Of a DNA stretch of 64,000 nucleotides, positions 8,431-24,911 are shown in pieces. The notes under the pieces are model-generated. The model saw only the letters and a program-made list of their open reading frames with translations, did no database searches and was not told where the DNA came from. The translations under genes were made by a program, and so were the position numbers. This DNA comes from Escherichia coli. GTDB lineage: Bacteria; Pseudomonadota; Gammaproteobacteria; Enterobacterales; Enterobacteriaceae. The first letter of the stretch is position 1, and every line of letters begins with the position of its first letter. Where the stretch lies: the NCBI RefSeq assembly GCF_024502345.1, contig NZ_JALDNN010000001.1; one strand, written 5' to 3'.

Positions 8431-8935
8431 AAAATCCGCTTGATGGGCCATGGCCTTCGGCGGCGGTGTCGGGAAGGTGTGTTGGCCGGACGGATACTGT
8501 TGAACTACGTTGTCTGGGGCAACGGAAGTGTTTCGGCCCGACTCTGGAACGCGATCCGCAGCGACGACTGGGCAATTCCGCACGTTGGCCTGAGCAGCCT
8601 CGGGGAAATCGTCGTCTGGGCGCGCCCAGACGAGTTTCCGCCAAGGAACATGCAGACAAGCAAGGGGCTGCGGGCACTCGGCTACAACGTGAGGATCGGT
8701 GTTTGATCGAGGCGCCTGTGGCACACGCAGGCTGAGGAGCCAGGCGCTGTCCATTGCCTGATCAGGCCGCCCCCCTGTGCCTTGCCTGAGCAGTTGACCT
8801 GCATCAATGGGGCGGGAGAACGCTGCACATTGCACTCTTGACTCCTGAAGTTTTTCATGGTAAGCCTAATATTACAAAGTATTGCAAGGATTTCCTTGGC
8901 CGGAACCGCAAAGCGACGCGATTGGAGAGGGTGAG

Positions 8936-9217
8936 ATGAAAGCGCACCTACAGGTGATTTTCACGCTCGATGAATTGGCTGCGTACTTGAAAGTCGGCAA
9001 GCGGACGCTTTATCGGCTCGCCGCACACGGGGAAATTCCGGCTTTCAAGGTGGGCGGGACGTGGCGGCTTCGTCAAAGTGAAATCGATCAGTGCATCAAT
9101 GATCAGACCCGAGCCGGAGCAAAGAAGGAGGTGATGCGCAAGCGTGAACAGCAGAAGTCATCCGAGCAGCCCGTGTCGCCTGGGCGCACTGCCCGTCGCA
9201 GCAGGCAAAGGGCTTGA
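8936..9217 (+). CDS. Helix-turn-helix DNA-binding protein (excisionase/MerR-like), LHR orf1
   Basis: MKAHLQVIFTLDELAAYLKVGKRTLYRLAAHGEIPAFKVGGTWRLRQSEIDQCI, an excisionase-type HTH; ATG at 8936. Confidence 0.75.
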   Translation: MKAHLQVIFTLDELAAYLKVGKRTLYRLAAHGEIPAFKVGGTWRLRQSEIDQCINDQTRAGAKKEVMRKREQQKSSEQPVSPGRTARRSRQRA

Positions 9218-9251
9218 GTAACTCGTTTTCCAATTTTTCTGGAGGTATGAC

Positions 9252-9821
9252 ATGGACATCGATTTCAAGAAGTTGGCTCCCTGGAACTGGTTCAAGAACG
9301 AGCAGCAAGAGCAGCAGACCGCCTCTTCCCTGCCGGTGCAGCGCAATGACCTGCCAGCGGCGAGCGGGCCAGTCAGCCCGATCCTGCAACTGCGTCGGGA
9401 AATCGACCGGCTGTTCGATGACGCATTCCGGGGCTTCGGTTTTCCGGCGTTGAACATGCCGCAGTGGCCATCCGATTGGTCGGGCATGCTGAAGCCGGCC
9501 CTGGACATCCAGGAAACCGACAAGCAGTACAAGATTGCCCTGGAAGTGCCCGGTGTCGAGGAGAAGGACATCCAGATCACCCTCGACAACGACGTGCTGA
9601 TGGTGCGTGGCGAGAAGCGCCAGGAACAGGAGAAGAAGGAAGGTGGCTTCCACCGTGTGGAGCGCTCCTACGGCAGCTTTCAGCGTGCCTTGAACCTGCC
9701 TGACGACGCCAACCAGGATTCGATCAAGGCATCGTTCAAGAACGGGGTGCTCACGGTCACGATCGACAAGCGCGAGGTCAGCGCGCCGAAGCAGGGACGC
9801 TCGATCCCGATCAACGGCTGA
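9252..9821 (+). CDS. hsp20: Small heat shock protein, Hsp20/alpha-crystallin family (LHR sHsp20)
   Basis: 189 aa with alpha-crystallin domain signature (...ALEVPGVEEKDIQITLDNDVLMVRGEKRQEQ...GVLTVTIDK); GGAGG RBS upstream. Confidence 0.9.
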   Translation: MDIDFKKLAPWNWFKNEQQEQQTASSLPVQRNDLPAASGPVSPILQLRREIDRLFDDAFRGFGFPALNMPQWPSDWSGMLKPALDIQETDKQYKIALEVPGVEEKDIQITLDNDVLMVRGEKRQEQEKKEGGFHRVERSYGSFQRALNLPDDANQDSIKASFKNGVLTVTIDKREVSAPKQGRSIPING

Positions 9822-9926
9822 CGTCGCCGGCTCGTTCGTCACAAGAAAAACCCGTCCCGAGACGAGGTGTCGCGGCTCGCGATGCCTCGTCGCCTCAACC
9901 TTTTCAACCTTCTAAGGAGCATCAGC

Positions 9927-12809
9927 ATGGCCAGAAAACAATGCCAGGTCTGCGGCCAACCCGCCACCGTGCGGGTGGAAGCCAATCTCAACGGTCGTCA
10001 CAGCACCATGCTGTTGTGCGACGACCATTACCGGCAATTAGTGCGCCAGCAAAAGCGCACCGTTTCGCCGCTGGAAGCCTTGTTCGGTTCGCGCAGCGGC
10101 CTGTTCGAGGACTTCCTCGGCAGTGACTTCTTCCGCATCGGCGACGACGCGACGCCAGTTGCCGCCGATACCGATGACGTGGTCGATGCCTCGTTTGGCG
10201 AGCCCGCCGCCGCAGGTTCGGGTGCGCCGCGCCGTCGCGGCAGTGGGCTGGCCAGCCGCATCAGCGAACAGTCGGAAGCCTTGTTGCAGGAGGCCGCCAA
10301 ACACGCTGCCGAATTTGGCCGCTCCGAGGTGGATACCGAACATCTGCTGCTGGCGCTGGCCGACAGCGACGTGGTCAAGACCATCCTGGGTCAGTTCAAG
10401 ATCAAGGTCGATGACCTCAAGCGGCAGATCGAGTCTGAGGCCAAGCGCGGGGACAAGCCCTTCGAGGGCGAGATCGGCGTGTCGCCGCGCGTGAAGGATG
10501 CGCTCAGCCGCGCCTTCGTGGCCTCCAATGAACTCGGTCATTCTTATGTCGGTCCAGAGCATTTCCTGATTGGTCTGGCCGAGGAAGGCGAAGGGCTGGC
10601 CGCCAACCTGCTGCGCCGCTACGGCCTGACGCCGCAGGCGCTGCGCCAACAGGTCAGCAAGGTGGTCGGCAAGGGCGCCGAGGATGGACGCGCTGAGACG
10701 CCGACCAACACGCCCGAGCTGGATAAATACTCGCGCGACCTCACCAAGATGGCGCGCGACGGCAAGCTCGACCCGGTGATCGGCCGCGCGCAGGAGATCG
10801 AAACCACCATCGAGGTGCTGGCCCGGCGCAAGAAGAACAACCCGGTGCTGATCGGCGAGCCGGGTGTGGGCAAGACCGCCATCGTCGAAGGGCTGGCGCA
10901 GCGCATGGTGGCGGGTGAAGTGCCCGAGACCTTGCGCGACAAGCGCCTGGTGGAACTCAACATCAACGCCATGGTGGCCGGCGCCAAATATCGCGGCGAG
11001 TTCGAGGAGCGCGTGCAGAAGGTGCTGAAGGAGGTGACCGAGCACCAGGGCGAGCTGATTTTGTTCATCGACGAGGTGCACACCATCGTCGGTGCCGGCC
11101 AGGGCGGTGGCGAAGGCGGGCTGGACGTGGCCAACGTATTCAAACCGATGATGGCGCGCGGTGAACTCAACCTGATCGGCGCCACGACGCTGAACGAGTA
11201 CCAGAAATACATCGAGAAGGATGCCGCACTGGAGCGGCGCTTCCAGCCGGTGACGGTGCCCGAGCCGACGGTGGCCCAGACCATCATGATTCTGCGCGGC
11301 CTGCGCGACACCTTCGAGGCGCACCACAAGGTCAGCATCTCCGAGGACGCGATCATCGCGGCGGCCGAGTTGTCCGACCGCTACATCACGGCGCGCTTCC
11401 TGCCGGACAAGGCGATCGACCTGCTCGACCAGGCGGCCGCGCGCGTGAAGCTGTCGGCCACGGCCCGGCCGGTGGCCGTGCAGGAGCTGGAGTCCGAACT
11501 GCACCAGCTGCGGCGTGAACAGGATTACGTGGCCGCGCGCAAGCAGTACGACCAGGCCGCCGAGCTCGGCAAGCGCATCGAAGCCAAGGAGACCGAGCTC
11601 AAGAAGCTCGTCGAGAACTGGGAGCGGGAGCGGGCCTCCGGCAGTGCAGAGGTCAAGGCGGAACACGTGGCGCAGATCGTCTCGCGCCTGACCGGCATCC
11701 CTGTCAACGAGTTGACGGTGGAAGAGCGCGAAAAGCTGCTGCACTTGGAACAACGGCTGCACGAGCGCCTGGTGGGACAAGACGAGGCGGTCCGTGCCGT
11801 GGCCGATGCCGTGCGGCTGTCCCGCGCCGGCCTGCGCGAAGGCAGCAAACCGGTGGCTACCTTCCTGTTTCTGGGCCCGACCGGGGTGGGCAAGACCGAG
11901 CTCGCCAAGGCATTGGCCGAATCGATCTACGGCGATGAGCACGCCCTGTTGCGCATCGACATGTCGGAATATGGCGAACGCCATACCGTGGCGCGGCTGG
12001 TGGGCGCGCCTCCGGGCTATGTCGGTTACGACGAAGGCGGTCAGCTCACCGAGAAGGTGCGGCGCAAGCCCTACAGCGTGCTGCTGCTCGACGAGATCGA
12101 GAAGGCACACCCTGACGTCTACAACATCCTGCTGCAAGTGTTCGACGACGGTCGCCTCACCGACGGCAAGGGCCGGGTGGTGGATTTCACCAACACCATC
12201 ATCATCGCCACGTCCAACCTGGGTTCGGACATCATCCAGCGACGGCTGAAGGCGCGTGGGGCGGCCGACGAGGAGTACGAAAAGACCAAGGCCGAGGTCA
12301 TGGACGTGCTGCGCGGCCACTTCCGGCCCGAGTTCCTCAACCGCATCGACGAGATCATCGTCTTCCATGCGCTGGGTAAGGAGGAGATCCGCCACATCGT
12401 CGGCCTGCAGCTCGATCGCGTGGCGCGCAGCGCCGCCAGCCAGGGCGTGACGCTCACTTTCGATCAGACGCTGATCGACCATTTCGCGGAAGAAGGCTAC
12501 AAACCCGAGTTCGGTGCGCGTGAACTCAAGCGCCTGATCCGCAGCGAGCTGGAAACTGCGCTGGCGCGCGAGATGCTCGGTGGCGGCATCGGCAAGGGCG
12601 ATCACGCCAGCGCACGCTGGGACGACAAGGCCGAACGCGTGGTGTTCGAACGCAAAGAGCCACTGCAGACCCCGGCCGAGCCGGAGCAGCCGGATGCCGC
12701 GAAGGCGACCGAGCCGGAGCAGCCGGATGCCGCGAAGGCGACCGAGACGCCGCACGGCGACGCTGGCAAAGGCTCGCGCAAGAAGAAGTCGGCGAGCGAC
12801 GCATCTTGA
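9927..12809 (+). CDS. clpK: ClpK/ClpG-type AAA+ disaggregase (Clp ATPase with N-terminal zinc-ribbon-like CxxC..CxxH)
   Basis: [36 protein letters not shown]-terminus; two AAA+ modules (GEPGVGKT..., [15 protein letters not shown]...); AAGGAG RBS before ATG 9927. ORF-track start at 9867 is a less likely upstream start. Confidence 0.92.
12678..12743 (+). repeat. Perfect 2 x 33-bp tandem duplication inside the clpK 3' region (encodes [11 protein letters not shown] twice)
   Basis: GAGCCGGAGCAGCCGGATGCCGCGAAGGCGACC occurs twice in direct succession, in frame. Confidence 0.9.
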
Positions 12810-13000
12810 TGGCGGGCGAGGCTGCCGTGTCCGACCCCAAGGGCCTGGCATGGGCAGCCTCCCTGGCCTCGATCGCGGTGGCGTTCGTGGCCGCGGGTCA
12901 CGCGGTCGTCTACAAGCGTGATCCGCGGTCGACCACGCCGTGGGGGCTGCTCATCAGCGGCGGCACTGCCCTCCCGCTCGCTGGCCATCCGTTTGCGTGA
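12809..13000 (+). CDS. Small hypothetical hydrophobic protein between clpK and the ftsH-like gene (speculative)
   Basis: 63-codon ORF starting at ATG overlapping the clpK stop; hydrophobic; may be a GC-rich frame artifact. Confidence 0.3.
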   Translation: MAGEAAVSDPKGLAWAASLASIAVAFVAAGHAVVYKRDPRSTTPWGLLISGGTALPLAGHPFA

Positions 13001-13060
13001 CGGTGCGGCCCGTCTGTTCACCTGATCCTCTGGCAACTCGACTTTCGAGGAACACAGCCC

Positions 13061-14788
13061 ATGGAAAAAAAGAATCAATGGAATACCGGCTACTGGATCG
13101 TTGCCCTCCTGCTGTTGTTGAGTTTGCAGAGCTACTGGCAGACGGCGAAAACCGTCGAGCCGGTGCCCTACAGCGAGTTCGAGAAGGCGCTGGCCGAGGG
13201 GCGCGTGGCCGAAGTGCTGGTGTCGGATCGTACGGTGACCGGGCGCCTGAAGTCGCCGGACAGCCGGGGCAAGACGACGATCGTGGCAACGAGGGTCGAA
13301 CCCGATCTTGCCGATCGCCTGTCGAAGTACGACGTGCCCTATGCCCGCGTGTTGGAGAGCACCTGGCTGCGCGATGTGCTGTCGTGGATCCTGCCAGCGG
13401 TAGCCTTCTTTGGCGTCTGGTTCTTCCTGTTCCGCCGCTTCGCCGAGAAGCAGGGCATGGGCGGGTTTCTCAACATCGGTAAGAGCCGCGCCAAGGTGTT
13501 CGTGGAAAAGAACACCGGTGTGACGTTCGCCGATGTCGCGGGGGGGGATGAGGCCAAGGCGGAGCTGGTCGAGATCGTCGATTTCCTGAAGAATCCGCAG
13601 GACTATGGCCGTCTCGGGGCGCGCATTCCCAAGGGCGTGTTGCTGGTCGGCCCACCGGGCACCGGCAAGACATTGCTGGCCAAGGCTGTTGTCGGCGAGG
13701 CGGCGGTGCCCTTCTTCTCCATCTCCGGATCAGAGTTTGTCGAGATGTTCGTCGGCGTGGGTGCGGGCCGCACGCGCGGCGTCGGCGGCCACGACGAGAG
13801 CGAGCAGACCCTCAACCAACTGCTCACGGAGATGGACGGCTTCGACAGCTCGGTCGGGCTGATCATCCTCGCCGCCACCAACCGCCCCGAAATCCTCGAC
13901 CAGGCTCTGCTGCGTGCCGGCCGCTTCGACCGCCAGGTGCTGGTGGACCGGCCCGACAAGAAGGGGCGGCTGGACATCCTGAAGGTTCATGTCAAGAAGG
14001 TGACGCTGGCCCAGGATGTAGACCTCGAACAGGTAGCAGCACTGACCACGGGCTTTTCCGGCGCGGACCTCGCCAATAGGGTCAACAAGGCGGCGCTGGC
14101 GGCGAGGAGACGCCGTGCGTCCGCCGTGGAATTGCAGGACTTCACCGCGACCATCGAGCGCATCGTGGCGGGCCTGGAAAAGAAGAGCCGCGTGCTCAAT
14201 CCCAAGGAGCGGGAAACCGTGGCCCATCACGAGATGGGCCATGCGCTGGTGGCGCTGGCGCTGCCCGAAACCGACCCCGTACACAAGATCTCGATCATCC
14301 CGCGCGGCATCGGCGCGCTGGGCTACACCTTGCAGCGCCCCACCGAAGACCGCTTCCTGATGACGCGTACCGATCTCGAGCACAAGATCGCCGTACTGCT
14401 GGGCGGGCGTGCCGCCGAAAAGCTGGTGTTCGGCGAGTTGTCTACCGGGGCGGCGGACGATCTGGCGCGAGCCACCGACATCGCCCGCGACATGATCACC
14501 CGCTTTGGCATGGACGAGGGCCTGGGCTACATCGCCTTCGAGGCGCAGCGGCCCCGCTTTCTCGATACACCGGAACTGGCCCACGGCGGTTGCCGGGTGG
14601 CCGAATCGACCCAGGCGCGCATCGATCAGGCTATCCGCGACATCGTGATGGGCGTGTTCGAGCGCGCCTACCGGATTCTCGACATCTACCGCGCGGTGCT
14701 GGAGCGCTGCGCGCGCGAGCTGCTGGCGCGGGAAGCGCTCGACGAAAGCGATATCCGTCAATTGACTCAAGGACTTGTTCGGAACTGA
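13061..14788 (+). CDS. FtsH-like membrane AAA+ zinc metalloprotease paralog; Walker A and HEMGH present, Walker B segment apparently missing
   Basis: Two N-terminal TM segments, GPPGTGKT Walker A, HEMGH zinc site; [28 protein letters not shown] lacks the ~27-29 residues (including IIFIDEID) present in E. coli FtsH at that position. Confidence 0.85.
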
Positions 14789-14875
14789 AAACAGTAGTAG
14801 GTGCCATTCAGAGTAAACCGACGGCTCTGTTCAGTGCGTCATCCAATTCGTCGGCATTGTTCAAGGAGAACCGAT

Positions 14876-15334
14876 ATGTCTGCATTGACTCCGTGGGACC
14901 CCTTCCGGGAACTGGATGAATTGCAAAACCGCCTGGCGACGATGTTCGGACGAATACCCCAGCGACAGGGCGCCCGTACCGGCAACGAAGCCATGACCAC
15001 GGCGGACTGGGCACCAATGGCGGACATCAGCGAGGATGAGAACGCATTCCTCCTCAAGCTGGATCTGCCGGAGGTCCCCAAGGATGCCGTGCGCGTCAGC
15101 GCGGAAAACGGTGTGCTCACCATCAGCGGCGAGCGCAAACTGGAAAAAGAGGAGCAGGGCAAGAAGTTCCACCGCATCGAACGTGCGTATGGCCGCTTTG
15201 TGCGCAGCTTTGTCTTGCCTGACAACGTTGATCCGACCAAGGTGACGGCTTCCATGAAAGACGGCGTACTGGAAGTGCGGCTTGTCAAGGCCGAGCAAGC
15301 CAAACCGAAACAGATTGAAATCTCAGTCAACTAA
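14876..15334 (+). CDS. Small heat shock protein, Hsp20 family (second LHR sHsp)
   Basis: MSALTPWDPFRELDELQNRL...GVLTISGERKLEKEEQGKKFHRIERAYGRF...; AAGGAG RBS before ATG 14876. Confidence 0.9.
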   Translation: MSALTPWDPFRELDELQNRLATMFGRIPQRQGARTGNEAMTTADWAPMADISEDENAFLLKLDLPEVPKDAVRVSAENGVLTISGERKLEKEEQGKKFHRIERAYGRFVRSFVLPDNVDPTKVTASMKDGVLEVRLVKAEQAKPKQIEISVN

Positions 15335-15356
15335 CTTCAATCAGGAGCCCAAGATC

Positions 15357-16271
15357 ATGAATATCAAACAGCCACAATACACCTTCTCCGCACTTGCCCT
15401 GGCGGTCGTCGTCGGACTGAGCGGACCGGCTCTGGCCCAATCGGCGGCAGGTTCTAGCCCAGGTGCTGCAGCCCCCTCTGCCGCATCCAAGGCGGCACAG
15501 CCACAAGTAGATGACAAGGCCGCCCGGGAAGCCGATAAAAAGCGTGCCGAGCTCACTCAAGACGCCATCACGGCGCTCACCAAGACCCAGGAGGCTTTGA
15601 CCCTCCTTGATGCAAAGAAGACCAAGGAGGCGCTTGCTGCGCTGGAACTGGCCAGCGGAAAGCTGGAACTGGTATTGGCACGTGACGCCAAACTTGCTTT
15701 GGCGCCGGTCGATGTACGCGTCATCACCCACGATATCCACGCCAACGTGGAATCGGTAAAGAAAGCGGTCAAGTTGTCTCGGGAGTTGTTGGGTGATGGC
15801 GAGGTGCAAAAGGCCCGGCCCATCGTTGCCAATCTGGCCAGCGAAATCGTAATCCAAACCGACAACCTTCCGATGGCAACGTACCCGGCAGCGATCAAGT
15901 CGGCCGCACGGCTCATCGACAGCGGCAAGATCGACAACGCCAAAGCGGAACTCGCCCGAGCACTGAACACGCTGGTGGTGACCTCGGTCGCCTTTCCTCT
16001 GCCCGTGCTACGGGCCGAAGCCGCGATGGCAAAAGCTGAAAAGCTGGCCGAGACCGACAGGCGCGATGCCAAGCAGAACGAGGAGCTCAGCACCTTGCTG
16101 TCGTCCGTGCGCACGGAGATCGAGATGGCGCAGATCCTGGGTTATGGCAAGAAGGCGGACTTCAAACCCATTTTCGATCAGGTGAAGTCCATTGAGCAAA
16201 AGTCGGCTGGTGGCAAAAGCGGCAAGGGATGGTTCGACGAGTTGAAGACGCGCATCCAAAAGCTGTTTTGA
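15357..16271 (+). CDS. yfdX: YfdX-family protein 1, with N-terminal signal peptide
   Basis: MNIKQPQYTFSALALAVVVGLSGPALAQ signal peptide then YfdX-like helical repeats; ATG at 15357 after AGGAG. Confidence 0.85.
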   Translation: MNIKQPQYTFSALALAVVVGLSGPALAQSAAGSSPGAAAPSAASKAAQPQVDDKAAREADKKRAELTQDAITALTKTQEALTLLDAKKTKEALAALELASGKLELVLARDAKLALAPVDVRVITHDIHANVESVKKAVKLSRELLGDGEVQKARPIVANLASEIVIQTDNLPMATYPAAIKSAARLIDSGKIDNAKAELARALNTLVVTSVAFPLPVLRAEAAMAKAEKLAETDRRDAKQNEELSTLLSSVRTEIEMAQILGYGKKADFKPIFDQVKSIEQKSAGGKSGKGWFDELKTRIQKLF

Positions 16272-16373
16272 GGTGATGAAGGGGCTGACTGCTCTGTCGG
16301 TCAGTCTCGCGATGTTCGCATTCAGCCCCAACAGATTCGCCTATTTTCACTATCTCATACGAGGCATATCACC

Positions 16374-17261
16374 ATGAATGAGCAAACACCGAATCCCAAT
16401 GCGACGAACGAAGGAATAAACGAACAAGCCGCGGTAAGCAGCCTTCCTGTCAGTCCAGAGTCCAAGCCTGAAGTCGTCACGGAGGTACAGCCTGAGGTTC
16501 AGAAAGAAACGGACTCGCAGGCGGCAGACAAACGTAAACAAGTCCTCGATGAGGCAGTCTCGGCCTTGTCGCTGACCAAATCAGCGCTGGCCGCACTTGA
16601 CGGCAAGGACACTGCACGCGCATTGGCAACGCTGGCCGAAGTGACGGGAAAGCTGGAGCTGATCGTCGCGCGCGAACCCACGCTCGCCCTGGCCGGCGTT
16701 GATGTGCGCACCATCGTGCACGACTTGTTCGCCAACACGGAAACCATTGAGGCGATGACCGACGAGGCGCTGGATGCCCTCAAACATGGCGAGGTGCAAC
16801 AGGCTCGCCACGTGCTGGCTTTGCTGGCCAGTGAAATCGTGATCACGGTCACCAACATCCCTTTGGCGTCCTATCCCGCAGCCGTGAAGGCAGTCGTGCC
16901 GCTGATCGATCAGGGCAAGATCGAAGAAGCCAAAGCCGCGCTGCAGTCAGCGCTCAGCACGCTGGTCGAGGAGCGCAGCGTGCTTCCGCTGCCCGTCCTG
17001 CGTGCGAAGCTGCTCCTGAAGCGCGCCGAGCCTCTGGTAGAAGATGGTCAGCGCAGCGAAGCATCCAATGAGCGCCTGGAGACATTGTTGAACGAAGCCC
17101 GGCAGCAGTTGGAAATGGCAGAACTGCTGGGCTATGGAAAAAGGAAGGACTTTGAGCCCCTGTACGCTGAACTCAAGAAAATCAAGGAAAAGACGGGAGG
17201 GGGAGGCTTCGGAAAAGGCTGGCTCGATGAAGTCAAGGCAAAACTGTCCAGGTTGTTCTGA
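16374..17261 (+). CDS. yfdX: YfdX-family protein 2; no signal peptide in this frame
   Basis: Paralogous to the preceding gene over the C-terminal ~230 aa; N-terminus MNEQTPNPNATNEG is hydrophilic. Confidence 0.8.
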   Translation: MNEQTPNPNATNEGINEQAAVSSLPVSPESKPEVVTEVQPEVQKETDSQAADKRKQVLDEAVSALSLTKSALAALDGKDTARALATLAEVTGKLELIVAREPTLALAGVDVRTIVHDLFANTETIEAMTDEALDALKHGEVQQARHVLALLASEIVITVTNIPLASYPAAVKAVVPLIDQGKIEEAKAALQSALSTLVEERSVLPLPVLRAKLLLKRAEPLVEDGQRSEASNERLETLLNEARQQLEMAELLGYGKRKDFEPLYAELKKIKEKTGGGGFGKGWLDEVKAKLSRLF

Positions 17262-17269
17262 AACCGCTG

Positions 17270-17296
17270 GAGAGGGGGCGCATAGTGCCCCCTCTC
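17270..17296 (+). terminator. Rho-independent terminator after yfdX2
   Basis: Perfect 10-bp GC-rich inverted repeat GAGAGGGGGC / GCCCCCTCTC with 7-nt loop, followed by a T-rich tract. Confidence 0.7.
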
Positions 17297-17350
17297 TTGT
17301 CCCATGAGTGTTTGATTTTTTATTTTGTATAGATCTTTAGGAGATATTGC

Positions 17351-17962
17351 ATGAACACAGACACCATCACCGATTCCAGTGCGGATGACCCCACCAAAGC
17401 ACTGTGTTCGCTTAGCCAAAATTGGTGGCTTTTTGTGCTGCGCGGTGTCTTGGCATTGATTTTTGCAGCCCTCGCGTTCTGGATGCCACAATCGGCTCTG
17501 TTGGCCATGACCATCATGTTCGGCGCATTTTCCTTGGTCAATGGCGCGTTCAACTTGTTTGCAGCGGTGCGCCATATCCAGAAAAAAGAGCGCTGGGGCT
17601 GGTTGTTGTTCAGCGGCATTGTCGGCATACTTACGGGCGTCGTCGTCCTGGTTGCTCCTTGGGTCGCCACGATAGTCTTGGCTTCTTTTTTATGGGCTAG
17701 CGTGGGCTTCTGGGCGATTTTCACCGGTGTGCTGGAGATATCTGCCGCCGTTCGGCTGCGTCGGGAAATCAAGGGTGAAATCTGGCTTGCCCTCAGTGGA
17801 CTGCTCTCGATTATCCTTGGTGCTATCGTCTTGTGGATATTTTTTACCCGTCCGGTCGAGTCATTCGTGGCCGCAGGCTGGCTGTTGGGTTTCCATGCGG
17901 CAGTCTATGGCGTCACGCTTTTGTTCTTGAGTTGGAGTCTTCGCAAAACGCGCCTGGGGTAA
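17351..17962 (+). CDS. hdeD: HdeD-like acid-resistance membrane protein
   Basis: 203 aa with multiple TM segments, HdeD-family-like. Confidence 0.8.
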   Translation: MNTDTITDSSADDPTKALCSLSQNWWLFVLRGVLALIFAALAFWMPQSALLAMTIMFGAFSLVNGAFNLFAAVRHIQKKERWGWLLFSGIVGILTGVVVLVAPWVATIVLASFLWASVGFWAIFTGVLEISAAVRLRREIKGEIWLALSGLLSIILGAIVLWIFFTRPVESFVAAGWLLGFHAAVYGVTLLFLSWSLRKTRLG

Positions 17963-18041
17963 GAGCGTGCCAAACCAAAATCTATGGATATGAGCATCCT
18001 CGATTCATGCCTCCATAGAAATGACATCGAAGGAGTCATAC

Positions 18042-19187
18042 ATGCAGATACAATATAGCTATCGAGCTATCGACAAAGAGTTTCATGAACCTTGGCAGAG
18101 AGCTTTGGGAAATGTGATCGAGCACGCCCTCAAGCCATTGCTCGACAAACACACTAAAGATTCAGCGCGACTTCAAATCGTCCTTGATCGCGACAAGATC
18201 AAGCGGCAATTTCTGGCCAGTGGCTATATGCACCTGCCCGGCAAAAAGATTGTCAGCGTTACTGCATCACATGACGAGCTGACGCCCCTCGCGCAGATGC
18301 TCGCACAGTCGTTGTTCCGTCAGGCCAAGAAGCATTTTGACCGACTGCATGCTCAGGATCAAATCAAGCGCAAAGCACGACGCGAGCGCTTGCGCGAGCT
18401 CAAGGTGCGGATTGCCGCAAAACCCGCATCAGCCGCCCATGAGGCCGAGGTGACCCGAATGCCTCTACTGTCGAAACTTGAGGCTGTCGCAAGGCGTGAG
18501 CTGGCTTATCTGCGGGCCGTCGGCGATTTACCGCGCGATTATCCGACGCTGCGCGACGTGGTGGATGAAGCGATTGTCCGAGCTAAGGTGGAATGGCAAT
18601 CCGTGCCGGGGGAAAAAGAGGCTTACACCGGTCTTTTGAAGCATCTGTTCGCCGTCCTGGATAACGAAGTGGCAAGCAGCCGGCAATTTGGCGAATTCGT
18701 TTCTCTGGACGCGCCGGTCGAACCGGATGCCCAAGACGTGGCCGAGGCCATGGTGGAAGAGGAAATCTTCGAATTTTATCAGCACGATGACACACTCAAG
18801 CTGGCCGATATTTTCGCTGGCAGTCAGCATCCCGATGTCGCAACGATCGCGGAACAGGAGGAGCTGATTGATCGGTCGAGCGAGTTCGCTTTTGCATTTG
18901 ACCTGCTGAAGGACATGCCGCGTTTGTGGCGGCGCATTTTTCTGCTTATCCGTGTGGACGGGCTGAATGCCAGCAGCGTCTCTGAAATCCTGCTGATTCC
19001 TAGTAAGGAAGATGCTGTCCAAAGGTGGCTCATGCAGGCCGAAGCATTCATCGCTGCTCATCTGGAAGAGGCCGGAGTAAGCAAAAACGGGAACGATTGG
19101 CTCCAAGGCGTTGATTGGCCGGCATTGTCTGTGACCCGAAGCGAGGCAGCCTCACTGTGGTCCAAGGAGGCGAACCATGAAGAATGA
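18042..19187 (+). CDS. Hypothetical protein, unknown function (LHR orf11 position)
   Basis: ORF 18021..19187; ATG 18042 preceded by GGAG; no recognisable motifs; GC content lower than neighbouring LHR genes. Confidence 0.6.
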   Translation: MQIQYSYRAIDKEFHEPWQRALGNVIEHALKPLLDKHTKDSARLQIVLDRDKIKRQFLASGYMHLPGKKIVSVTASHDELTPLAQMLAQSLFRQAKKHFDRLHAQDQIKRKARRERLRELKVRIAAKPASAAHEAEVTRMPLLSKLEAVARRELAYLRAVGDLPRDYPTLRDVVDEAIVRAKVEWQSVPGEKEAYTGLLKHLFAVLDNEVASSRQFGEFVSLDAPVEPDAQDVAEAMVEEEIFEFYQHDDTLKLADIFAGSQHPDVATIAEQEELIDRSSEFAFAFDLLKDMPRLWRRIFLLIRVDGLNASSVSEILLIPSKEDAVQRWLMQAEAFIAAHLEEAGVSKNGNDWLQGVDWPALSVTRSEAASLWSKEANHEE

Positions 19188-19617
19188 TCTTCACCTCGTC
19201 TGCCCGCATTGCCAGTCCATCAACCGCGTACCGACTGCGAAGCTATCGGAACATCCCAACTGTGGCCGCTGCCAGCAGCCCTTGTTCACGGGCGAGCCCA
19301 TCGAGTTGACCACGGCGACGTTCTCGCGCCACGTGGAGCGCAGCGATCTGCCGCTGCTGGTCGATTTCTGGGCGCCATGGTGCGGGCCGTGCAAGATGAT
19401 GGCGCCACAGTTCCAGCAAGCGGCGCACCAGCTCGAACCGACGATCCGGCTGGCGAAGGTGAATACCGAGGCTGAGCCCCACCTGGCCGCGCAGTTCGGT
19501 ATCCGCAGCATCCCGACGCTCGCCCTGTTCCAGGGTGGGCGGGAGATCGCCCGTCAGGCCGGCGTGATGGGCGCGCAGGACATCGTGCGCTGGACGTCGA
19601 CGCAAGTGGGACGCTGA
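19177..19617 (+). CDS. trx: Thioredoxin, TrxC-like, with N-terminal zinc-finger extension
   Basis: CPHCQ...CGRCQ N-terminal motif plus WCGPC active site. Confidence 0.9.
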   Translation: MKNDLHLVCPHCQSINRVPTAKLSEHPNCGRCQQPLFTGEPIELTTATFSRHVERSDLPLLVDFWAPWCGPCKMMAPQFQQAAHQLEPTIRLAKVNTEAEPHLAAQFGIRSIPTLALFQGGREIARQAGVMGAQDIVRWTSTQVGR

Positions 19618-19620
19618 CCG

Positions 19621-21336
19621 ATGCAGGGCTTGCTCGGCACTACGCTAATCCTGCTGGCGGCTTGCAGCCTGGCGGCGATGGCGACGGCGGCGTTCAGAGT
19701 GCCCGCCTTGCTGGGGTATCTCTCTGTCGGCGTTGTACTGGGCCCCTCAGTCATCGGCGTGATCGCGCCGGGGGAGACGCTGAGCTTTCTGTCCGAGCTG
19801 GGCGTGGCGCTGCTGTTGTTCATGGTCGGACTGGAATTCTCCCTCGGAGACTTCTGGCTCGCCCGCAGGACGGTGCTGATGGCGGGCGCTCTGCAGATGA
19901 TCGCCGTGGCCCCGCCGCTGATCCTGCTATTGATGTGGCTGGGGCAGCCCGGCCAGAGCGCCGCGCTGCTCGGCACTGCGGCGGCCATGTCGTCCACGGC
20001 GCTGGTCAGCCGACAACTGGCCGACCAAGGCGAGCTCACCACCCGCCACGGACGCAGTGCCATCGCCGTGCTGGTCTTTCAGGACCTGGCCAGCGTGCCC
20101 CTGCTGGCCTTGCTGGCGATCTGGGCGCGCGGCGACTCGCCGAAGATCGAGCATGTGCTGCTCGAAGTATTCGGTGTGCTGCTGCTGTTCGCGGCAGCGG
20201 CCCTCGCCTCGCGCCGTCTGTTGCATGGCCTGCTGGGCTGGGTGGCGCGGCGGGGCCACGAGGAATCGTTCGTGCTCGTCTCCTTGTGCGTGGTGGTGGC
20301 CGCCGCCGCCGCTGCGCACGCGGTCGGCGTATCTGCCGCCCTGGGGGCCTTCCTCGCCGGGATGGTGCTGGGCGAGAGCGACTTCCGGCACCACATGGAA
20401 AGCCACCTCAGGCCGTTTCGCGATGTGTTGTCGGGCGTGTTCTTCGTGACCATCGGCCTGCAACTGGACGCAGCACAGATTCTTTCGGCACCGCTGGCGG
20501 TGCTGGCGTGGCTGGTGGTGCTGGTACCGGTCAAGATCCTGCTCAATACACTGGCCTTGCGGGCGACGCGCCTGTCCGCCCTCGATGCCTGGCGCACGGG
20601 CATAGCGTTGGGGCACGGCGGCGAGTTCGCCCTGCTGTTGTTGGGCACGGTCTTGCAGCAGCATCTGATCCCCGCGACCGTCGTCCAACCCATGCTGGTC
20701 GCGCTGGTGCTCAGCATGGCCCTGGCACCGCTACTGATCCGCCATCACGATGTACTTGCCCGGTTCTTGAGCCGCACCGGCGGCGTCATTCAGCCACCCC
20801 AGGCTGAAGAAGTCGAGATCGCCGCGCAGACGACGCGATATCGAGACCATGTCATCATTTGCGGCGCGGGCGAGCTTGGCCTGACAGTCAGCGAGATTCT
20901 TCGCCACGCCGGCGTGGCGCATCTGCTGCTGGAGGCGGACGCGCAGAAGGTCGAGGCCGCGCGTGCCGCCGGCGCGCCGGTGTTCCATGCCGATGCCAGT
21001 CGGCCCGATACCTTGCTGGCTGCCGGCTTGACGCATGCACACTTGGTGGTGCTGACGTTCGCCCATGCCCAGCAAGCGTTGCGCATCGCCCAGGCGATTG
21101 CCGAGCACCGTCCGGCGCTGACCTTGTGGGTGTCATGCAGAAGTACGACCGCGGCCGATGCATTTCGCGCCATGCCCAACGTGCGCGTGTATCAGCAATC
21201 CTTTGCCGCAGCTATTGGGCTGGCGGAACAGGTGATGTCGACGCTTGGCATGTCGACCGAGCTGATTGAAGGACACATCAGCGCAATGCGCCGCCGTCTC
21301 GACAGCAGCCGTTTTCCAGGGAGTTCATCGTCATGA
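19621..21336 (+). CDS. kefB: KefB-like monovalent cation:proton antiporter (CPA2 family) with C-terminal TrkA-N/KTN domain
   Basis: Multi-TM N-terminal domain; C-terminal VIICGAGELG Rossmann-type KTN motif. Confidence 0.85.
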   Translation: MQGLLGTTLILLAACSLAAMATAAFRVPALLGYLSVGVVLGPSVIGVIAPGETLSFLSELGVALLLFMVGLEFSLGDFWLARRTVLMAGALQMIAVAPPLILLLMWLGQPGQSAALLGTAAAMSSTALVSRQLADQGELTTRHGRSAIAVLVFQDLASVPLLALLAIWARGDSPKIEHVLLEVFGVLLLFAAAALASRRLLHGLLGWVARRGHEESFVLVSLCVVVAAAAAAHAVGVSAALGAFLAGMVLGESDFRHHMESHLRPFRDVLSGVFFVTIGLQLDAAQILSAPLAVLAWLVVLVPVKILLNTLALRATRLSALDAWRTGIALGHGGEFALLLLGTVLQQHLIPATVVQPMLVALVLSMALAPLLIRHHDVLARFLSRTGGVIQPPQAEEVEIAAQTTRYRDHVIICGAGELGLTVSEILRHAGVAHLLLEADAQKVEAARAAGAPVFHADASRPDTLLAAGLTHAHLVVLTFAHAQQALRIAQAIAEHRPALTLWVSCRSTTAADAFRAMPNVRVYQQSFAAAIGLAEQVMSTLGMSTELIEGHISAMRRRLDSSRFPGSSSS

Positions 21337-21830
21337 AATCAACACGCCTTAACCCATTTCAGGTCTTACGTGACCAATTGGCCATCATGAGTTTTTACGA
21401 GCGCTTCGAGCAGGTCGTCGCGCTCGTGCTGTCGGCGGTGATCGCCGTCATCATCGTGGTGTCGCTGTTCCAGCTCATCTCCATCGTCTTCACGCTGCTG
21501 GTTCTAGATGCCTTCAATCCCCTGGACCACGAGGTATTCCAGAGCGTGTTCGGCATGATCATGACGCTCTTGATCGCGATGGAGTTCAAGCATTCCATCG
21601 TGCGCGTGGCGCTGCGTCGGGACAGCATCATCCAGGTCAAGACGGTGGTCCTGATCGCGCTGATCGCACTCTCCCGCAAGTTCGTGATCCTCGACTCCAA
21701 CGCGAGCCCCGCAAAGATAGCCGCGCTGGCTAGCGCCACGCTGGCTCTGGGTGCGACCTACTGGCTGCTGCGCAAGCGCGGCGACCGCGCCGCCGAGACC
21801 TCTGAGCATGACCCGTCATCATCCCAGTGA
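21333..21830 (+). CDS. psiE: PsiE-family membrane protein (phosphate-starvation-inducible E-like)
   Basis: 165 aa, four hydrophobic segments, PsiE-like. Confidence 0.7.
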   Translation: MKSTRLNPFQVLRDQLAIMSFYERFEQVVALVLSAVIAVIIVVSLFQLISIVFTLLVLDAFNPLDHEVFQSVFGMIMTLLIAMEFKHSIVRVALRRDSIIQVKTVVLIALIALSRKFVILDSNASPAKIAALASATLALGATYWLLRKRGDRAAETSEHDPSSSQ

Positions 21831-22773
21831 TCCGCGCACGGCGCTCTTGCAACACCGCTGGCTCAACCGCCTGCAGACCGGGCTGTTGGTCCTGACCCTG
21901 GTCGGGATCGCAGCCGCAGCAGGGAGACTGCCGTTTGGGGAAGGCTGCCTGTGGCTCGCGCTGTTTGCCATTGCAGGTGCGTTGCTGCTGGAACCGGTAG
22001 CCGCGTCGGCGCTGAGCTTGCGCCTGTACCGCGTACGGGCCTTGCACCCGCAAGAAGCCCACAAGATGTGGGCCCTATTGCGCGAGCTGCCCGCCCGTGC
22101 CGGTTTGCCCGCCACGCCGGTGCCGCACTATGTGCCCAGTGCCGTCGTCAACGCCTTCGCCACCGGATCGAAGCAGGAGGCATCGATCGCCCTCACCGAT
22201 GGCCTGCTGCGCAGCCTGAGCCCACGCGAGCTGGCGGGTGTGCTCGTGCACGAGGTCGCGCACATCGCTAATGAGGATCTGCGTGTCATGGGGCTGGCGG
22301 ATTCCGACAGTCGCCTCACGAGCCTACTGGCCCTTATGGGACAGATCGCGATCCAGCTCAGCCTGCCCGCGCAGCTGGTTGGCGCGGCGGAGGTCTATTG
22401 GCCTGGTCTATTGTTATTGGCCGCATCGCCCCAGCTGGCCCTGCTCGCACAGCTCGGCTTGTCTCGCGTGCGTGAGTTCGACGCTGACCGCCTTGCGGCG
22501 GAACTGACTGGCGACCCGCAGGGGCTGGCGTCCGTGCTGGCAAAAATCGAGCGGGTCAGCCGCTCCTGGCGTGCCTGGCTATGGCCGGGATGGGGCAATC
22601 CCGAGCACTCCTGCTTGCGTACGCGTCCGGCAACGCAAGAGCGCATTGCACGCCTGCTGACGTTGGCGCCTGGGCCAGCATCAGCGTTGCCACTCCGCGC
22701 GCCCCATTTTTTGCCGGAATCCGCTTTGGCGACGCGCCCACCGAGCTGGCGCCCGAGCGGGCTGTGGCGCTGA
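21808..22773 (+). CDS. Zinc metalloprotease, M48/HtpX-like
   Basis: HEVAHIANED zinc-binding motif with N-terminal TM segments; start placed at MTRHHPSDPR (ATG 21808), overlapping the psiE end. Confidence 0.75.
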   Translation: MTRHHPSDPRTALLQHRWLNRLQTGLLVLTLVGIAAAAGRLPFGEGCLWLALFAIAGALLLEPVAASALSLRLYRVRALHPQEAHKMWALLRELPARAGLPATPVPHYVPSAVVNAFATGSKQEASIALTDGLLRSLSPRELAGVLVHEVAHIANEDLRVMGLADSDSRLTSLLALMGQIAIQLSLPAQLVGAAEVYWPGLLLLAASPQLALLAQLGLSRVREFDADRLAAELTGDPQGLASVLAKIERVSRSWRAWLWPGWGNPEHSCLRTRPATQERIARLLTLAPGPASALPLRAPHFLPESALATRPPSWRPSGLWR

Positions 22774-22797
22774 TTGCCCATCAACAGGAGACGTCTC

Positions 22798-23949
22798 ATG
22801 GCCTATCTCGACCCGTACCAACGCCCCGCGCCGGACCGCTTCGTCCGGCGCGGGCTCTTCATCACCGCCTGCATTGCCGCGCTCATGCTGCTGTGGCAGT
22901 TTCTGCCCGCCATCGAGGCATGGTTCAGTCCGCGCGAGGCAGCAGAACGCACCGTGATGGCGCGTGGCGATCTGGCGGCGGACGAGAAAACCACCATCGA
23001 ACTGTTCGAAAAATCGCGCGCCTCGGTGGTCTACATCACCACCGCGCAATTAGTACGCGATGTCTGGACGCGCAACGTGTTCTCCGTGCCGCGCGGCACT
23101 GGCTCGGGCTTCATCTGGGACGACGCCGGCCACGTCGTCACCAACTTCCACGTCATCCAGGGCGCGTCCGAAGCCACCGTCAAACTGGCCGACGGCCGCG
23201 ACTACCAGGCCGCGCTGGTGGGGATGAGCCCCGCGCACGACATCGCCGTGCTCAAGATCGGCGTCGGTTTCAAGCGCCCGCCGGCCGTGCCGGTCGGCAC
23301 CAGTGCCGACCTCAAGGTGGGTCAGAAGGTGTTCGCTATCGGCAACCCCTTCGGCCTGGACTGGACGCTCACCACAGGTATCGTCTCCGCGCTCGACCGC
23401 TCGTTGCCGGGAGAAGCGGGCGGCCCGGCCATCGATCACCTGATCCAGACCGACGCCGCCATCAACCCCGGCAATTCCGGTGGCCCGCTGCTCGATTCGG
23501 CTGGGCGGCTGATCGGAATCAATACCGCCATCTACAGTCCGTCTGGCGCCTCGGCCGGCATAGGCTTTGCGGTGCCGGTCGATACCGTCATGCGCGTGGT
23601 GCCGCAACTCATAAAGACCGGCAAGTACATCCGTCCGGCACTGGGCATCGAGGTGGATGAGCAGATCAACGCGCGTCTGCAGGCGCTGACCGGCAGTAAG
23701 GGCGTATTCGTATTGCGCGTGACGCCGGGCTCGGCGGCGCACAGGGCCGGGCTCGTCGGCGTCGAGGTCACCGCAGGCGGCATCGTGCCCGGCGATCGCG
23801 TTATCAGCATCGACGGTATCGCCGTCGACGACGTCACCACATTACAGGCCCGGCTAGACGACAAGAACGTTGGAGATGTTGTGGTCTTGTTAGTGGAGCG
23901 GGCCGGCAAGACTCGCGAGATGCTTGTGGAACTACAACCGGGAGTTTGA
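22798..23949 (+). CDS. degP: DegP/HtrA-family periplasmic serine protease with one PDZ domain
   Basis: Trypsin-like core (VVTNFHVI...DIAVLKI...GNSGGPL) followed by a PDZ-like C-terminus; ATG 22798 after CAGGAG. Confidence 0.88.
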   Translation: MAYLDPYQRPAPDRFVRRGLFITACIAALMLLWQFLPAIEAWFSPREAAERTVMARGDLAADEKTTIELFEKSRASVVYITTAQLVRDVWTRNVFSVPRGTGSGFIWDDAGHVVTNFHVIQGASEATVKLADGRDYQAALVGMSPAHDIAVLKIGVGFKRPPAVPVGTSADLKVGQKVFAIGNPFGLDWTLTTGIVSALDRSLPGEAGGPAIDHLIQTDAAINPGNSGGPLLDSAGRLIGINTAIYSPSGASAGIGFAVPVDTVMRVVPQLIKTGKYIRPALGIEVDEQINARLQALTGSKGVFVLRVTPGSAAHRAGLVGVEVTAGGIVPGDRVISIDGIAVDDVTTLQARLDDKNVGDVVVLLVERAGKTREMLVELQPGV

Positions 23950-24770: not shown

Positions 24771-24911
24771 CGCTCGGGTACCAGGAGGTGACGGACCCGT
24801 ATACCAAAGAAAAATACTTTGAGTACGCCCATGACGGCAAACTGATGGGGCAGCTACTGATACCCTCGAACCCTGACAATCAGGAATAAAACAACGACAA
24901 AGGAGACAAGA

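Follow-up and report, generated by a model that had tools for sequence, protein, structure and literature searches.

Genes in the 8936-23949 block

We analyzed a 64,000-nucleotide stretch of Escherichia coli DNA (the window) and found that positions 8936-23949 hold 15 ORFs, all open and all on the plus strand. The block begins at the start codon of orf1 and ends at the stop codon of a degP-like gene. Based on HMM matches and RefSeq names, the genes form three modules (protein homeostasis, envelope stress, and oxidative stress) in the order published for LHR, a heat- and chlorine-resistance island. The gene content and order proposed in a sequence-only reading of this DNA were confirmed by NCBIfam, Pfam, and RefSeq names, and every gene is named alike in the RefSeq annotation under the 99.8% matches described below.

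The core orf1(dna)-sHsp20-clpK/clpG is contiguous. orf1 (8936-9217) encodes a 93-aa excisionase/MerR-like helix-turn-helix regulator (TIGR01764, 52 bits compared to a cut-off of 28.8), and sHsp20 (9252-9821) encodes a small heat-shock holdase of 189 aa (Hsp20-family HMM; RefSeq name hsp20). Each is 98.9% identical to its counterpart in AW1.7. clpK (9927-12809) encodes a 960-aa allele of the ClpG-type stand-alone disaggregase that scores 2132 bits, above the curated equivalog cut-off of 1900 (NF033606). Its C-terminal tail has an 11-residue tandem duplication, that is, a 33-bp repeat at 12673-12738 (TRF: 2.2 copies, 100% match). This allele, WP_000101612.1, is the same in S43 and EC2001. clpK is followed by orf4 (12809-13000; RefSeq WP_001295707.1), a 63-aa hypothetical with no family match in NCBIfam, then by ftsH-GI (13061-14788) and by sHsp-GI (14876-15334), which encodes a second small heat-shock protein (152 aa, Hsp20 HMM matches) that is 100% identical to that of AW1.7.

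Upstream of orf1 is a conserved 87-aa hypothetical ORF (8443-8706, plus strand; WP_024191650/WP_001295708 in RefSeq copies). It had no NCBIfam match and is 95.6% conserved even in a tLST2-like Klebsiella plasmid. There is also a promoter-like stretch (8837-8873, plus strand), with TTGACT/CCTGAA as a -35-like element and TAATAT ending 63 nt before the ATG. This stretch is conserved across variants, other chromosomal copies have an identical promoter region, and a published promoter lies 63 bp upstream of orf1 (PMC8290217). Because a sigma-70 consensus scan called no promoter upstream of orf1, we base the assignment on the literature and on the conservation of the stretch, and regard 8837-8873 as a candidate promoter.

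Three genes for envelope proteins come next. yfdX1 (pscA; 15357-16271) encodes a periplasmic YfdX-family protein (Pfam YfdX, E = 8e-34) that is 99.7% identical to that of AW1.7. Its paralogue yfdX2 (pscB; 16374-17261) is 99.0% identical to AW1.7; it had no NCBIfam match and is named by the RefSeq label of the matching CDS and by partial DNA similarity to yfdX1 (~68% over 230 bp), not by an HMM. hdeD-GI (17351-17962) encodes a membrane protein with two DUF308 repeats (Pfam, E = 6e-14 and 8e-9) and is 99.5% identical to AW1.7. Downstream of orf11 are trx-GI (19177-19617), for a TrxC-type thioredoxin (NF008229, 156 bits compared to a cut-off of 125), and kefB-GI (19621-21336), for a CPA2 K+/H+ antiporter (KefC/KefB and CPA2 HMM matches; 99.6% identical to AW1.7). 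psiE-GI (orf14; 21333-21830) has a weak PsiE match (E = 3e-6) and is 100% identical to AW1.7. orf15 (21808-22773) encodes an M48/HtpX-like zinc metalloprotease, named HtpX in RefSeq, with matches to HtpX HMMs (E ~1e-35) that are under the curated cut-offs. The last gene, degP-GI (22798-23949), encodes an S1C (HtrA/DegP-type) serine protease (TIGR02037, E = 5e-85) that is 99.2% identical to AW1.7.

In earlier descriptions, orf11 (18042-19187, 381 aa) resembled no protein of known function, and the sequence-only reading listed it as hypothetical. Pfam searches of its relatives and Foldseek point instead to a recognizable two-domain architecture, in which an HPF/RaiA-like domain at the N-terminus (about residues 1-100) is connected by a long helical linker to a probable ECF-sigma/PhyR-sigma-like domain at the C-terminus. 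At E<=0.001, 17 of 41 relatives matched Sigma70_r4_2, 15 of 41 PhyR_sigma-like, and 8 of 41 Ribosomal_S30AE; the window protein alone scored only E = 0.065 for Sigma70_r4_2. In an AlphaFold model (pLDDT 78), the N-terminal ~95 residues have the predicted beta-alpha-beta-beta-beta-alpha fold of HPF/RaiA (YfiA), and Foldseek matched them to HPF/YfiA structures (4hei, 2rql, 3tqm, and 6h4n) with probability 1.00, target TM-scores of 0.75-0.85, and rmsd of 2.3-3.1 A. The C-terminus gave weaker matches, to SigW, SigH, and AlgU (E of 0.01-0.1).

Identity of the island and the lesion in ftsH-GI

The block is collinear with, and 98-99.8% identical to, the AW1.7 plasmid, S43 (CP010237), and the islands of 118 E. 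coli genomes, and the alignment thus bears out the match to LHR/tLPQC proposed earlier. Among 5,426 complete E. coli genomes, those 118 (2.2%) have a match that spans 80% or more of the query, in agreement with the published prevalence of ~2-2.6% (PMC5383660; PMC12603250). The best full-length matches in complete E. coli genomes were 99.7-99.8% identical with 100% coverage. PMC12603250 assigns a variant when identity to a reference variant is 90% or more and coverage is 80% or more; here the values were 99.8% and 100% against many E. coli genomes, and 98.3-99.1% against AW1.7 over ~94% of the island.

The GC content over 8936-23949 is 62.2% (published value for the island, 62%; PMC5383660), compared to 46.5% in the right flank (island DNA, 24782-58900), ~48-58% in 1-kb windows of the left IS nest, and 58.4% in the mhp genes farther left. 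The earlier claim that GC is far above that of the flanks is correct on the right; on the far left the contrast is only moderate. The foreign base composition (about 61-62% GC) is accompanied by flanking mobile elements: IS66, IS256, IS3, and IS30 on the left and IS5 on the right.

The tLST1 of S43 is like that of the window in gene set, gene order, left IS nest, truncated Citrobacter-type mhpA, and right IS5 fragment, and its 960-aa ClpK and 575-aa FtsH are identical to those in the window. The window differs from S43-type copies by an IS30 at the mhpA' joint, found in only some copies, and by a private 4.4-kb deletion. The IS nests of S43 and EC2001 carry a group II intron and IS110, and the window has neither. 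LHR1 of AW1.7, the functionally tested reference, is collinear with the block at 98.3% and 99.1% DNA identity, except for 880 bp of ftsH. It has the same 13 functional genes in the same order (the proteins are 98.4-100% identical), and the upstream hypothetical ORF and downstream IS5 fragment are also alike. In contrast to the window, AW1.7 has lost another 880 bp of ftsH (window positions 13696-14575), leaving a 212-aa stub, its ClpK is 949 aa without the 33-bp duplication, and its promoter region differs by 8 bp. In the complete AW1.7 genome, LHR1 is on a 75.8-kb plasmid beside IS26 and Tn3.

Based on these results, we conclude with a probability of about 95% that the 15-kb block, foreign in origin, is a full and standard chromosomal LHR (now tLST1) at its usual site. 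We are just as sure of its type: in the 2025 nomenclature it is E. coli tLST1 (CP010237/S43 type), and AW1.7 LHR1 is its close sister. Naming differs between papers, and the S43-type island is tLSTa in PMC8407380 and tLST1 in PMC12603250. The island itself is already known; its exact type has been published as a reference, and finding it here brings nothing new.

There is hardly any chance that the block is a different variant, that is, LHR2/tLST2 or the Pseudomonas-type tLPQC/tLST3a. The presence of an FtsH-family ORF might suggest this, since some papers list FtsH as absent or truncated in tLST1 (PMC8290217). Those variants (E. coli FAM21805 plasmid, Klebsiella plasmids, and P. aeruginosa clone C) share the three-module design and homologous core genes, with ~95% DNA identity in the envelope module. 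However, identity is only 84-86% in modules 1 and 3, including to the tLST2-like Klebsiella plasmid, and they carry cls, a fuller ftsH, an insertion splitting orf11, and a diguanylate cyclase gene. We found no cls after clpK, no MscS/orfA-D insertion within orf11, and no GGDEF gene after kefB (between kefB and psiE) in 8936-23949; the tLST2-like Klebsiella plasmid L005 has all three. In addition, the alleles are those of S43, and it is a shorter ftsH lesion that defines the E. coli tLST1 type (PMC12603250).

The window contains exactly such a lesion. ftsH-GI, listed as FtsH-like in the sequence-only reading, is a 575-aa open frame with a match to the FtsH family. It has an 81-bp in-frame deletion (joint at ~13771-13781) that takes out the Walker B segment (AIIFIDELD; alignment gap over AIIFIDELDAL). 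The gap was seen relative to an intact 610-aa Agrobacterium homologue and a 602-aa E. coli-plasmid allele, and an alignment to FtsH in the PDB splits there. Walker A (GPPGTGKT), the SRH arginines (RAGRFDR), and HEMGH are retained. With Walker B gone, the motif set of a functional FtsH (AAA+ zinc metalloprotease) is incomplete, and the gene is defective. The protein is identical to WP_000412528.1 of S43; it has the short lesion only, without the extended deletions of AW1.7, tLST1a, and tLST1b.

It seems very unlikely that the island is a decayed, non-functional remnant, recognizable but conferring no resistance, similar to the truncated tLSTt forms that are frequent on plasmids of Klebsiella. 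Loss of Walker B is in keeping with decay, as are the relaxed constraint on ftsH-GI and orf11 (dN/dS) and the position of the island among dead IS elements, and most of 1,442 plasmid matches, largely from Klebsiella, span only the orf1-sHsp20-clpK part. Against this, no ORF is interrupted, and clpK, kefB, sHsp-GI, and degP have mostly low dN/dS, indicating purifying selection. Both ftsH-GI and orf11 have been reported to be dispensable, and tLST1 with a truncated ftsH still gives full resistance (PMC8290217). Deletion of sHsp20, clpK, sHsp-GI, pscA, pscB, hdeD, or kefB lowers heat or chlorine resistance of MG1655 lacZ::LHR (PMC8407380); all seven genes are intact in the window and 98.8-100% identical to the functionally tested genes of AW1.7.

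Closely related copies of the island have their ftsH-GI disabled by at least four distinct changes. This repeated loss fits a dispensable, or possibly harmful, role in Enterobacteriaceae.

Flanks and chromosomal site

The transposase fragments that had been noted on both sides of the block are real. On the left is an IS66-family remnant (8056-8428, minus strand) consisting of a transposase C-terminal stub (8056-8220) and a TnpA-like accessory ORF (8165-8428), with NCBIfam matches to IS66_ISRel24_TnpA (E = 1e-18) and transpos_IS66 (E = 1e-6). Homology to Raoultella/Klebsiella plasmids starts inside this remnant, at 8113. On the right is a truncated ISPa16-like IS5-family element (24028-24743, minus strand) with a transposase remnant (24174-24749; transpos_IS5_4, E = 4e-64). 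The element is 89% identical to P. putida ISPa16 (24023-24743), begins where homology to distant tLST variants stops (24027), and accompanies the island in Enterobacteriaceae. Both remnants belong to a unit shared with Raoultella and Klebsiella plasmids. Between the island and a truncated mhpA is an IS nest (4516-7838; NCBIfam transposase matches and RefSeq annotation of identical DNA) with an IS30 that has its own inverted repeats (4516-5736), an ISEc52-like IS3 fragment (5737-6642), and an IS256 fragment (6651-7838).

The insertion had been called context-specific. This is true of the right joint, the 4.4-kb deletion just past the IS5 fragment, which is unique among the 5,426 complete genomes. 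It is not true of the left joint (truncated mhpA, ISEc52', IS256', IS66', LHR), which is common to 89 complete genomes, or of the plasmid-shared IS66 and IS5 remnants. The mhp flank is not the native operon but Citrobacter-derived: the genes are 82.7% identical to the native operon and 98% identical to Citrobacter portucalensis, and are next to mmuP within the thrW (CP4-6-like) island. In AH04, the lac region (the normal place of native mhp) is separate, ~30 kb away.

These findings make it highly improbable that the island inserted alone into the strain's native mhp operon by a recent, strain-specific transposition. The unique right junction and the IS30 copy, present at the mhpA' joint in only some genomes, are what such an event might leave. 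The widely shared mhpB-mhpA'-IS-LHR joint and the origin and place of the mhp genes argue against it. So do two negative results: we found no inverted or direct (terminal) repeats or target duplication bracketing the island, and no E. coli genome with an uninterrupted Citrobacter-type mhpA.

The copy has no transposition genes of its own. It is carried as cargo of the thrW island, amid dead IS elements, and is joined on its left to the truncated Citrobacter-derived mhpA. Within E. coli it most likely spreads by inheritance and by homologous recombination involving large segments of the chromosome. Boll et al. reported movement of LHR1 to MG1655 within a region of ~700 kb (PMC5383660). For the entry of the block into E. 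coli, a possible though doubtful route is that the island was first joined to mhpA in a Citrobacter chromosome and then reached the thrW island of E. coli as a single Citrobacter-LHR block.

Proposed function and implications

The module functions and the list of needed genes come from the literature. If expression is as assumed from sequence identity, the island products would be constitutive and rise in stationary phase, and the cell would be pre-loaded with protein-quality-control machinery. In the cytoplasm, sHsp20 and sHsp-GI would act as holdases for unfolding proteins, which ClpK, a ClpG-type AAA+ disaggregase that works alone, would extract from aggregates. YfdX1 and YfdX2 (PscA and PscB) and HdeD-GI would protect envelope proteins, and Trx-GI, KefB-GI, PsiE-GI, the M48 protease, and DegP-GI would handle oxidative and chlorine damage. 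We predict that the source strain survives at 60 C and in chlorine.

orf11 can now receive a domain description. It is possible, though we think it doubtful, that orf11 is an island-encoded HPF/RaiA plus ECF-sigma/PhyR-like sigma-mimic regulator; we score this jointly with the more modest reading that the Citrobacter-LHR block was joined before it entered E. coli. If true, orf11 could connect ribosome-pool status during stationary phase or stress to island transcription or to the freeing of a host sigma factor.

The mhp genes at the flank reveal the chromosomal site to be a piece of Citrobacter DNA lying within the thrW island, and ~2% of complete E. coli genomes have the same type of island at the same site. 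The island marks E. coli that survive pasteurization-like heat (60 C) and chlorine, and its presence here predicts a phenotype relevant to food safety and disinfection.

Identity and variant type of the island

We found that the DNA at 8936-23949 is the heat-resistance locus (LHR, or tLST1), which the sequence-only reading had identified correctly. It is a well-known element in its usual place. The ends proposed there hold: 8936 is the ATG of a small HTH gene and 23949 is in the stop codon of the gene for a DegP-like protease. The interval contains 15 ORFs, all of them on the + strand and all open. Profile searches (NCBIfam, Pfam) also bore out the gene content proposed earlier, with matches to an excisionase/MerR-type HTH protein, a first Hsp20, ClpK (2132 bits, where the equivalog cut-off curated by NCBI is 1900), an FtsH-family protein (13061-14788), a second Hsp20, a YfdX protein (yfdX1; Pfam E 8e-34), HdeD (with two DUF308 repeats at significant scores), a TrxC-type thioredoxin, a CPA2 antiporter of the KefB/KefC type, a relative of PsiE (a weak match), an M48/HtpX-like protease and an S1C/HtrA protease. 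The NCBIfam scan had no match for yfdX2, which was recognized from the RefSeq label on matching DNA and from partial DNA similarity to yfdX1. RefSeq names under the matching DNA are clpK, hsp20, hsp20-GI, yfdX1, yfdX2, hdeD-GI, trx-GI, kefB-GI and psiE-GI.

The contrast in GC content noted before is clear on the right, where the island (62.2%) adjoins the rest of the thrW island (46.5%); the mhp genes at the far left have 58.4% GC. We confirmed the bracketing transposase fragments, with IS66 stubs (TnpA-like and transposase) at 8056-8428 and an IS5-family stub at 24174-24749. We used 8800-24100 as a megablast query against 5,426 complete E. coli genomes. There were full-length matches at 99.7-99.8% identity, and matches spanning 80% or more of the query occurred in 118 genomes (2.2%), at 235 chromosomal and 47 plasmid places. 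This agrees with the published prevalence in E. coli of ~2-2.6% (PMC12603250; PMC5383660).

We made the comparison with a reference LHR that had been proposed in the sequence-only reading, using the functionally tested LHR1 of AW1.7. The two are collinear, with 98.3% identity over 8316-13695 and 99.1% over 14576-24570, and their 13 functional proteins are 98.4-100% identical. The sole gap in the alignment is 880 bp of ftsH that are missing from AW1.7. In the complete AW1.7 genome, LHR1 is on a 75.8-kb plasmid. S43 (CP010237), a reference sequence in two papers (one of them PMC8407380), has the same arrangement as the window, and its ClpK (960 aa) and FtsH (575 aa) proteins are identical to those encoded here. 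A 2025 survey sets tLST1 apart from the plasmid-borne tLST1_AW1.7 and finds tLST1 to be all but restricted to E. coli, with one case in Raoultella terrigena (PMC12603250); that Raoultella plasmid is the best plasmid match of the island in the window. For the CP010237 type, Zhu et al. 2021 use the name tLSTa (PMC8407380). That is, the names conflict between papers.

LHR2/tLST2 and tLST3a were ruled out, as the island has no cls, no orf11 insertion and no diguanylate cyclase gene. We compared it to a tLST2-like Klebsiella plasmid. Modules one and three (protein homeostasis and oxidative) were only 84-86% identical. In contrast, the envelope module (14790-18621) was ~95% identical, flanked by modules at ~85%. 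GC content falls to 53-54% across hdeD-GI and orf11 (17000-19000). The uneven identity points to exchange of modules among variants, and the pattern fits the mosaic history described for them (PMC8407380).

A Citrobacter-type flank and the travelling unit

The window begins with mhpF' mhpD mhpC mhpB mhpA' (1-4515, - strand), and the left joint reads mhpB, truncated mhpA, ISEc52', IS256', IS66', LHR. The insertion between mhp and a thrW-associated island had been regarded as specific to this context. On the left side it is not: the joint was found, at 80% or greater query coverage, in 89 complete E. coli genomes and is the standard chromosomal site.

Nor is the neighbouring mhp DNA E. coli's own operon. 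These genes are 82.7% identical to the K-12 operon, and mhp identity across E. coli is bimodal, with 105 records at 99% or above and 4,814 at 80-90%. The ~105 E. coli records with this type of mhp invariably end at the same truncated mhpA. The truncated MhpA protein is 100% identical to that of Citrobacter portucalensis A60, 97-91% identical to that of other Citrobacter and 90% identical to that of Escherichia. In the comparison genome AH04, the 8.9-kb stretch from mmuP to mhpA', which includes mhpT and mhpE, has 98.1% DNA identity to C. portucalensis. The flank is thus DNA of the Citrobacter freundii complex, 98% identical to C. portucalensis A60. We also compared mmuP-mmuM in CP4-6 of K-12 (locus positions 17150-19150) to the same Citrobacter contig (locus positions 15380-17380). 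They were 98.7% identical, and the homology begins exactly at the IS5A boundary. Because mmuP and mmuM of K-12 are Citrobacter-like, K-12 may have arisen by deletion from a longer cargo block of Citrobacter origin, one that still includes mhp in LHR carriers.

The order mhp, island, thrW could be read as the product of a ~70-kb deletion that removed lac and mhpR. We rejected this reading, because mhp here is a second, Citrobacter-type copy adjoining mmuP. It is also countered by AH04, in which lacZYA, like the cyn, cod and prp genes, is intact ~30 kb further on. Based on the mmuP homology and the separate lac region of AH04, the LHR lies inside the thrW-associated, CP4-6-like island, attached to a patch of Citrobacter chromosome, and its position is between the ykfA-like GTPase gene and mmuP. 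None of the E. coli genomes searched had an empty site, that is, an uninterrupted Citrobacter-type mhpA-mhpR, so the joint had a single origin, either in Citrobacter or in an E. coli that was an early carrier.

Homology to distant variants (tLST2-like Klebsiella and Acinetobacter plasmids) extends from 8326-8756 to 24027, and homology to the Raoultella plasmid extends from 8113 to 24743. Most of the Klebsiella plasmid matches share the left end at 8113. The island therefore takes the IS66 remnant, an 87-aa hypothetical ORF and the IS5 fragment along when it passes from one genus to another, and these are not features of the insertion in the window. The IS5 fragment resembles ISPa16, with 89% identity to a P. 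putida element, and starts exactly at the end of the island proper. A repeat search found no inverted or direct terminal repeats and no target duplications around the island; it returned only the repeats of an IS30 element and a tandem repeat in clpK.

That IS30 element is complete (4516-5736, with 26-nt terminal inverted repeats) and sits precisely where truncated mhpA meets the ISEc52 fragment. It is present in some carriers (N9, EC2001) and absent from others (AH04, S43). The group II intron of EC2001 and S43 is absent from the window. The repeat in clpK is a perfect 33-bp tandem duplication (12673-12738) that adds 11 residues to the C-terminal tail of ClpK (960 aa instead of 949 aa). Among E. 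coli carriers both alleles are in circulation, and the duplication is a known allele. To the right of the IS5 stub, at 24779-24781, the window lacks 4,386 bp that are present in Z226-5 and other carriers. This deletion takes out the ykfA-like GTPase gene, yafZ, a yfjR-like gene, ypjK and part of yafY, and joins the IS5 stub to yafY' via a 3-bp microhomology (TAC). The resulting joint is absent from all 5,426 complete E. coli genomes.

The rest of the thrW island starts with two CP4-like modules in opposite orientation (24779-34431), with ykfI-yafW and cbtA-type toxin-antitoxin pairs at ~81-84% DNA identity. The nearest genome has an Ag43 autotransporter gene, of which a 693-bp internal piece is left here (29963-30655). 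Further on are a candidate defence protein, PDC-M09B (41292-42737; E 2e-213), and a Dsr1-like SIR2 anti-phage gene (46053-50994) broken by an IS5-family element at ~49333-50391, which is also found at 38064-39122. Another defence candidate, an Olokun-like OloB/OloA pair (51966-55956; E 5e-58 and 3e-77), lies in a stretch of 34-40% GC. The tyrosine integrase gene (56360-58856) is split by an IS3-family insertion (57267-58524) and adjoins thrW (58981-59056, - strand). The thrW island is probably immobilised.

Lesions in ftsH-GI and the domains of orf11

The 575-aa FtsH-GI aligned to solved FtsH structures in two pieces. Compared to intact homologues (610 aa, from an Agrobacterium plasmid; 602 aa, from an E. 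coli plasmid), it is short of 27 residues, among them the Walker B box AIIFIDELD, and keeps Walker A, the arginine fingers and HEMGH. In the DNA, 11 bp at 13771-13781 replace 92 bp, which shortens the gene by 81 bp and preserves the frame. When FtsH-GI was used as a protein query, most of what came back was identical 575-aa E. coli entries; the intact alleles came from a DNA search with the ftsH region.

Closely related copies carry different lesions. The window and the E. coli chromosomal type share the 81-bp deletion, and the Raoultella plasmid has a second in-frame deletion of Walker B (32 codons, with different borders). The AW1.7 plasmid has lost a further 880 bp (window 13696-14575), the gene has a frameshift in the TUM14664 chromosome, and the Klebsiella tLST2-like plasmid has it in two fragments. 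At least one plasmid keeps the intact 602-aa gene. Among five tLST1 copies, dN/dS for ftsH-GI was 0.59-0.87, a measure that rests here on few substitutions and separates only relaxed from constrained evolution. Based on the varied lesions and dN/dS, we infer that ftsH-GI has been disabled repeatedly and is drifting. This agrees with the report that a truncated ftsH leaves tLST1 as protective as tLST2 (PMC8290217).

The product of orf11, left as hypothetical in the sequence-only reading and placed by a 2021 review below 30% identity to anything with a known function (PMC8290217), has a predicted domain architecture that is recognisable, HPF/RaiA-like followed by ECF-sigma-like. The protein alone gave a marginal Sigma70_r4_2 match in Pfam, and a PDB sequence search with it found nothing significant. 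Only a family-wide Pfam scan and fold comparison were informative. Among 41 aligned relatives (E<=0.001), 17 matched Sigma70_r4_2, 15 PhyR_sigma-like and 8 Ribosomal_S30AE (HPF/RaiA). In an AlphaFold model (mean pLDDT 78), the first ~100 residues matched solved HPF/YfiA structures (probability 1.0, target TM-score 0.75-0.85), and the remainder had weaker matches to ECF sigma factors such as SigW, SigH and AlgU. In some pipelines, relatives already bear the label "RaiA / sigma-24" or "RNA polymerase sigma factor". orf11 is split in tLST2, is absent from the list of genes whose deletion alters resistance (PMC8407380), and had dN/dS indicating relaxed constraint, from which we do not claim positive selection.

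Expected heat resistance of the source strain

The mechanism is taken from published work and transferred to this island by sequence identity. The island proteins are produced during growth and increase in stationary phase. The promoter has been placed 63 bp upstream of orf1 (PMC8290217), and the window has TTGACT/CCTGAA followed by TAATAT, whose last base is 63 nt before the ATG. This stretch is conserved across variants and identical to that in other chromosomal copies. A sigma-70 consensus scan called nothing upstream of orf1 (its total matches were at chance level), so the promoter is one that we infer. Rfam scans, run with gathering thresholds on the whole window and with E<=1 on 8000-25000, found only thrW and no RNA thermometer or other known RNA in the island.

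With the roles published for the three modules (PMC8290217), sHsp20 and sHsp-GI would act as holdases on unfolding proteins, and ClpK, an autonomous disaggregase of the ClpG type, would dissolve aggregates. YfdX1 and YfdX2 (PscA and PscB) would protect the envelope together with HdeD-GI, and Trx-GI, KefB-GI, PsiE-GI, the M48 protease and DegP-GI would make up the chlorine/oxidative module. Deletion of sHsp20, clpK, sHsp-GI, pscA, pscB or hdeD reduces heat and chlorine resistance, and deletion of kefB reduces chlorine resistance (PMC8407380). All seven genes are intact in the window. Among the five tLST1 copies, dN/dS was 0.04-0.37 for clpK, 0.06-0.41 for kefB, 0 for sHsp-GI and 0.14-0.30 for degP in most comparisons (one pair gave 1.06, on four substitutions). 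That is, clpK, kefB, sHsp-GI and degP in most comparisons are under purifying selection.

The by-products are modest, and we did not find them stated in the literature on the island surveyed here: a flank of Citrobacter type, an ftsH-GI disabled repeatedly and independently, and the domain architecture of orf11. Based on the intact resistance genes and purifying selection, we expect high heat resistance in the source strain. The island is of little interest as a discovery, and its practical interest is in the prediction of phenotype.
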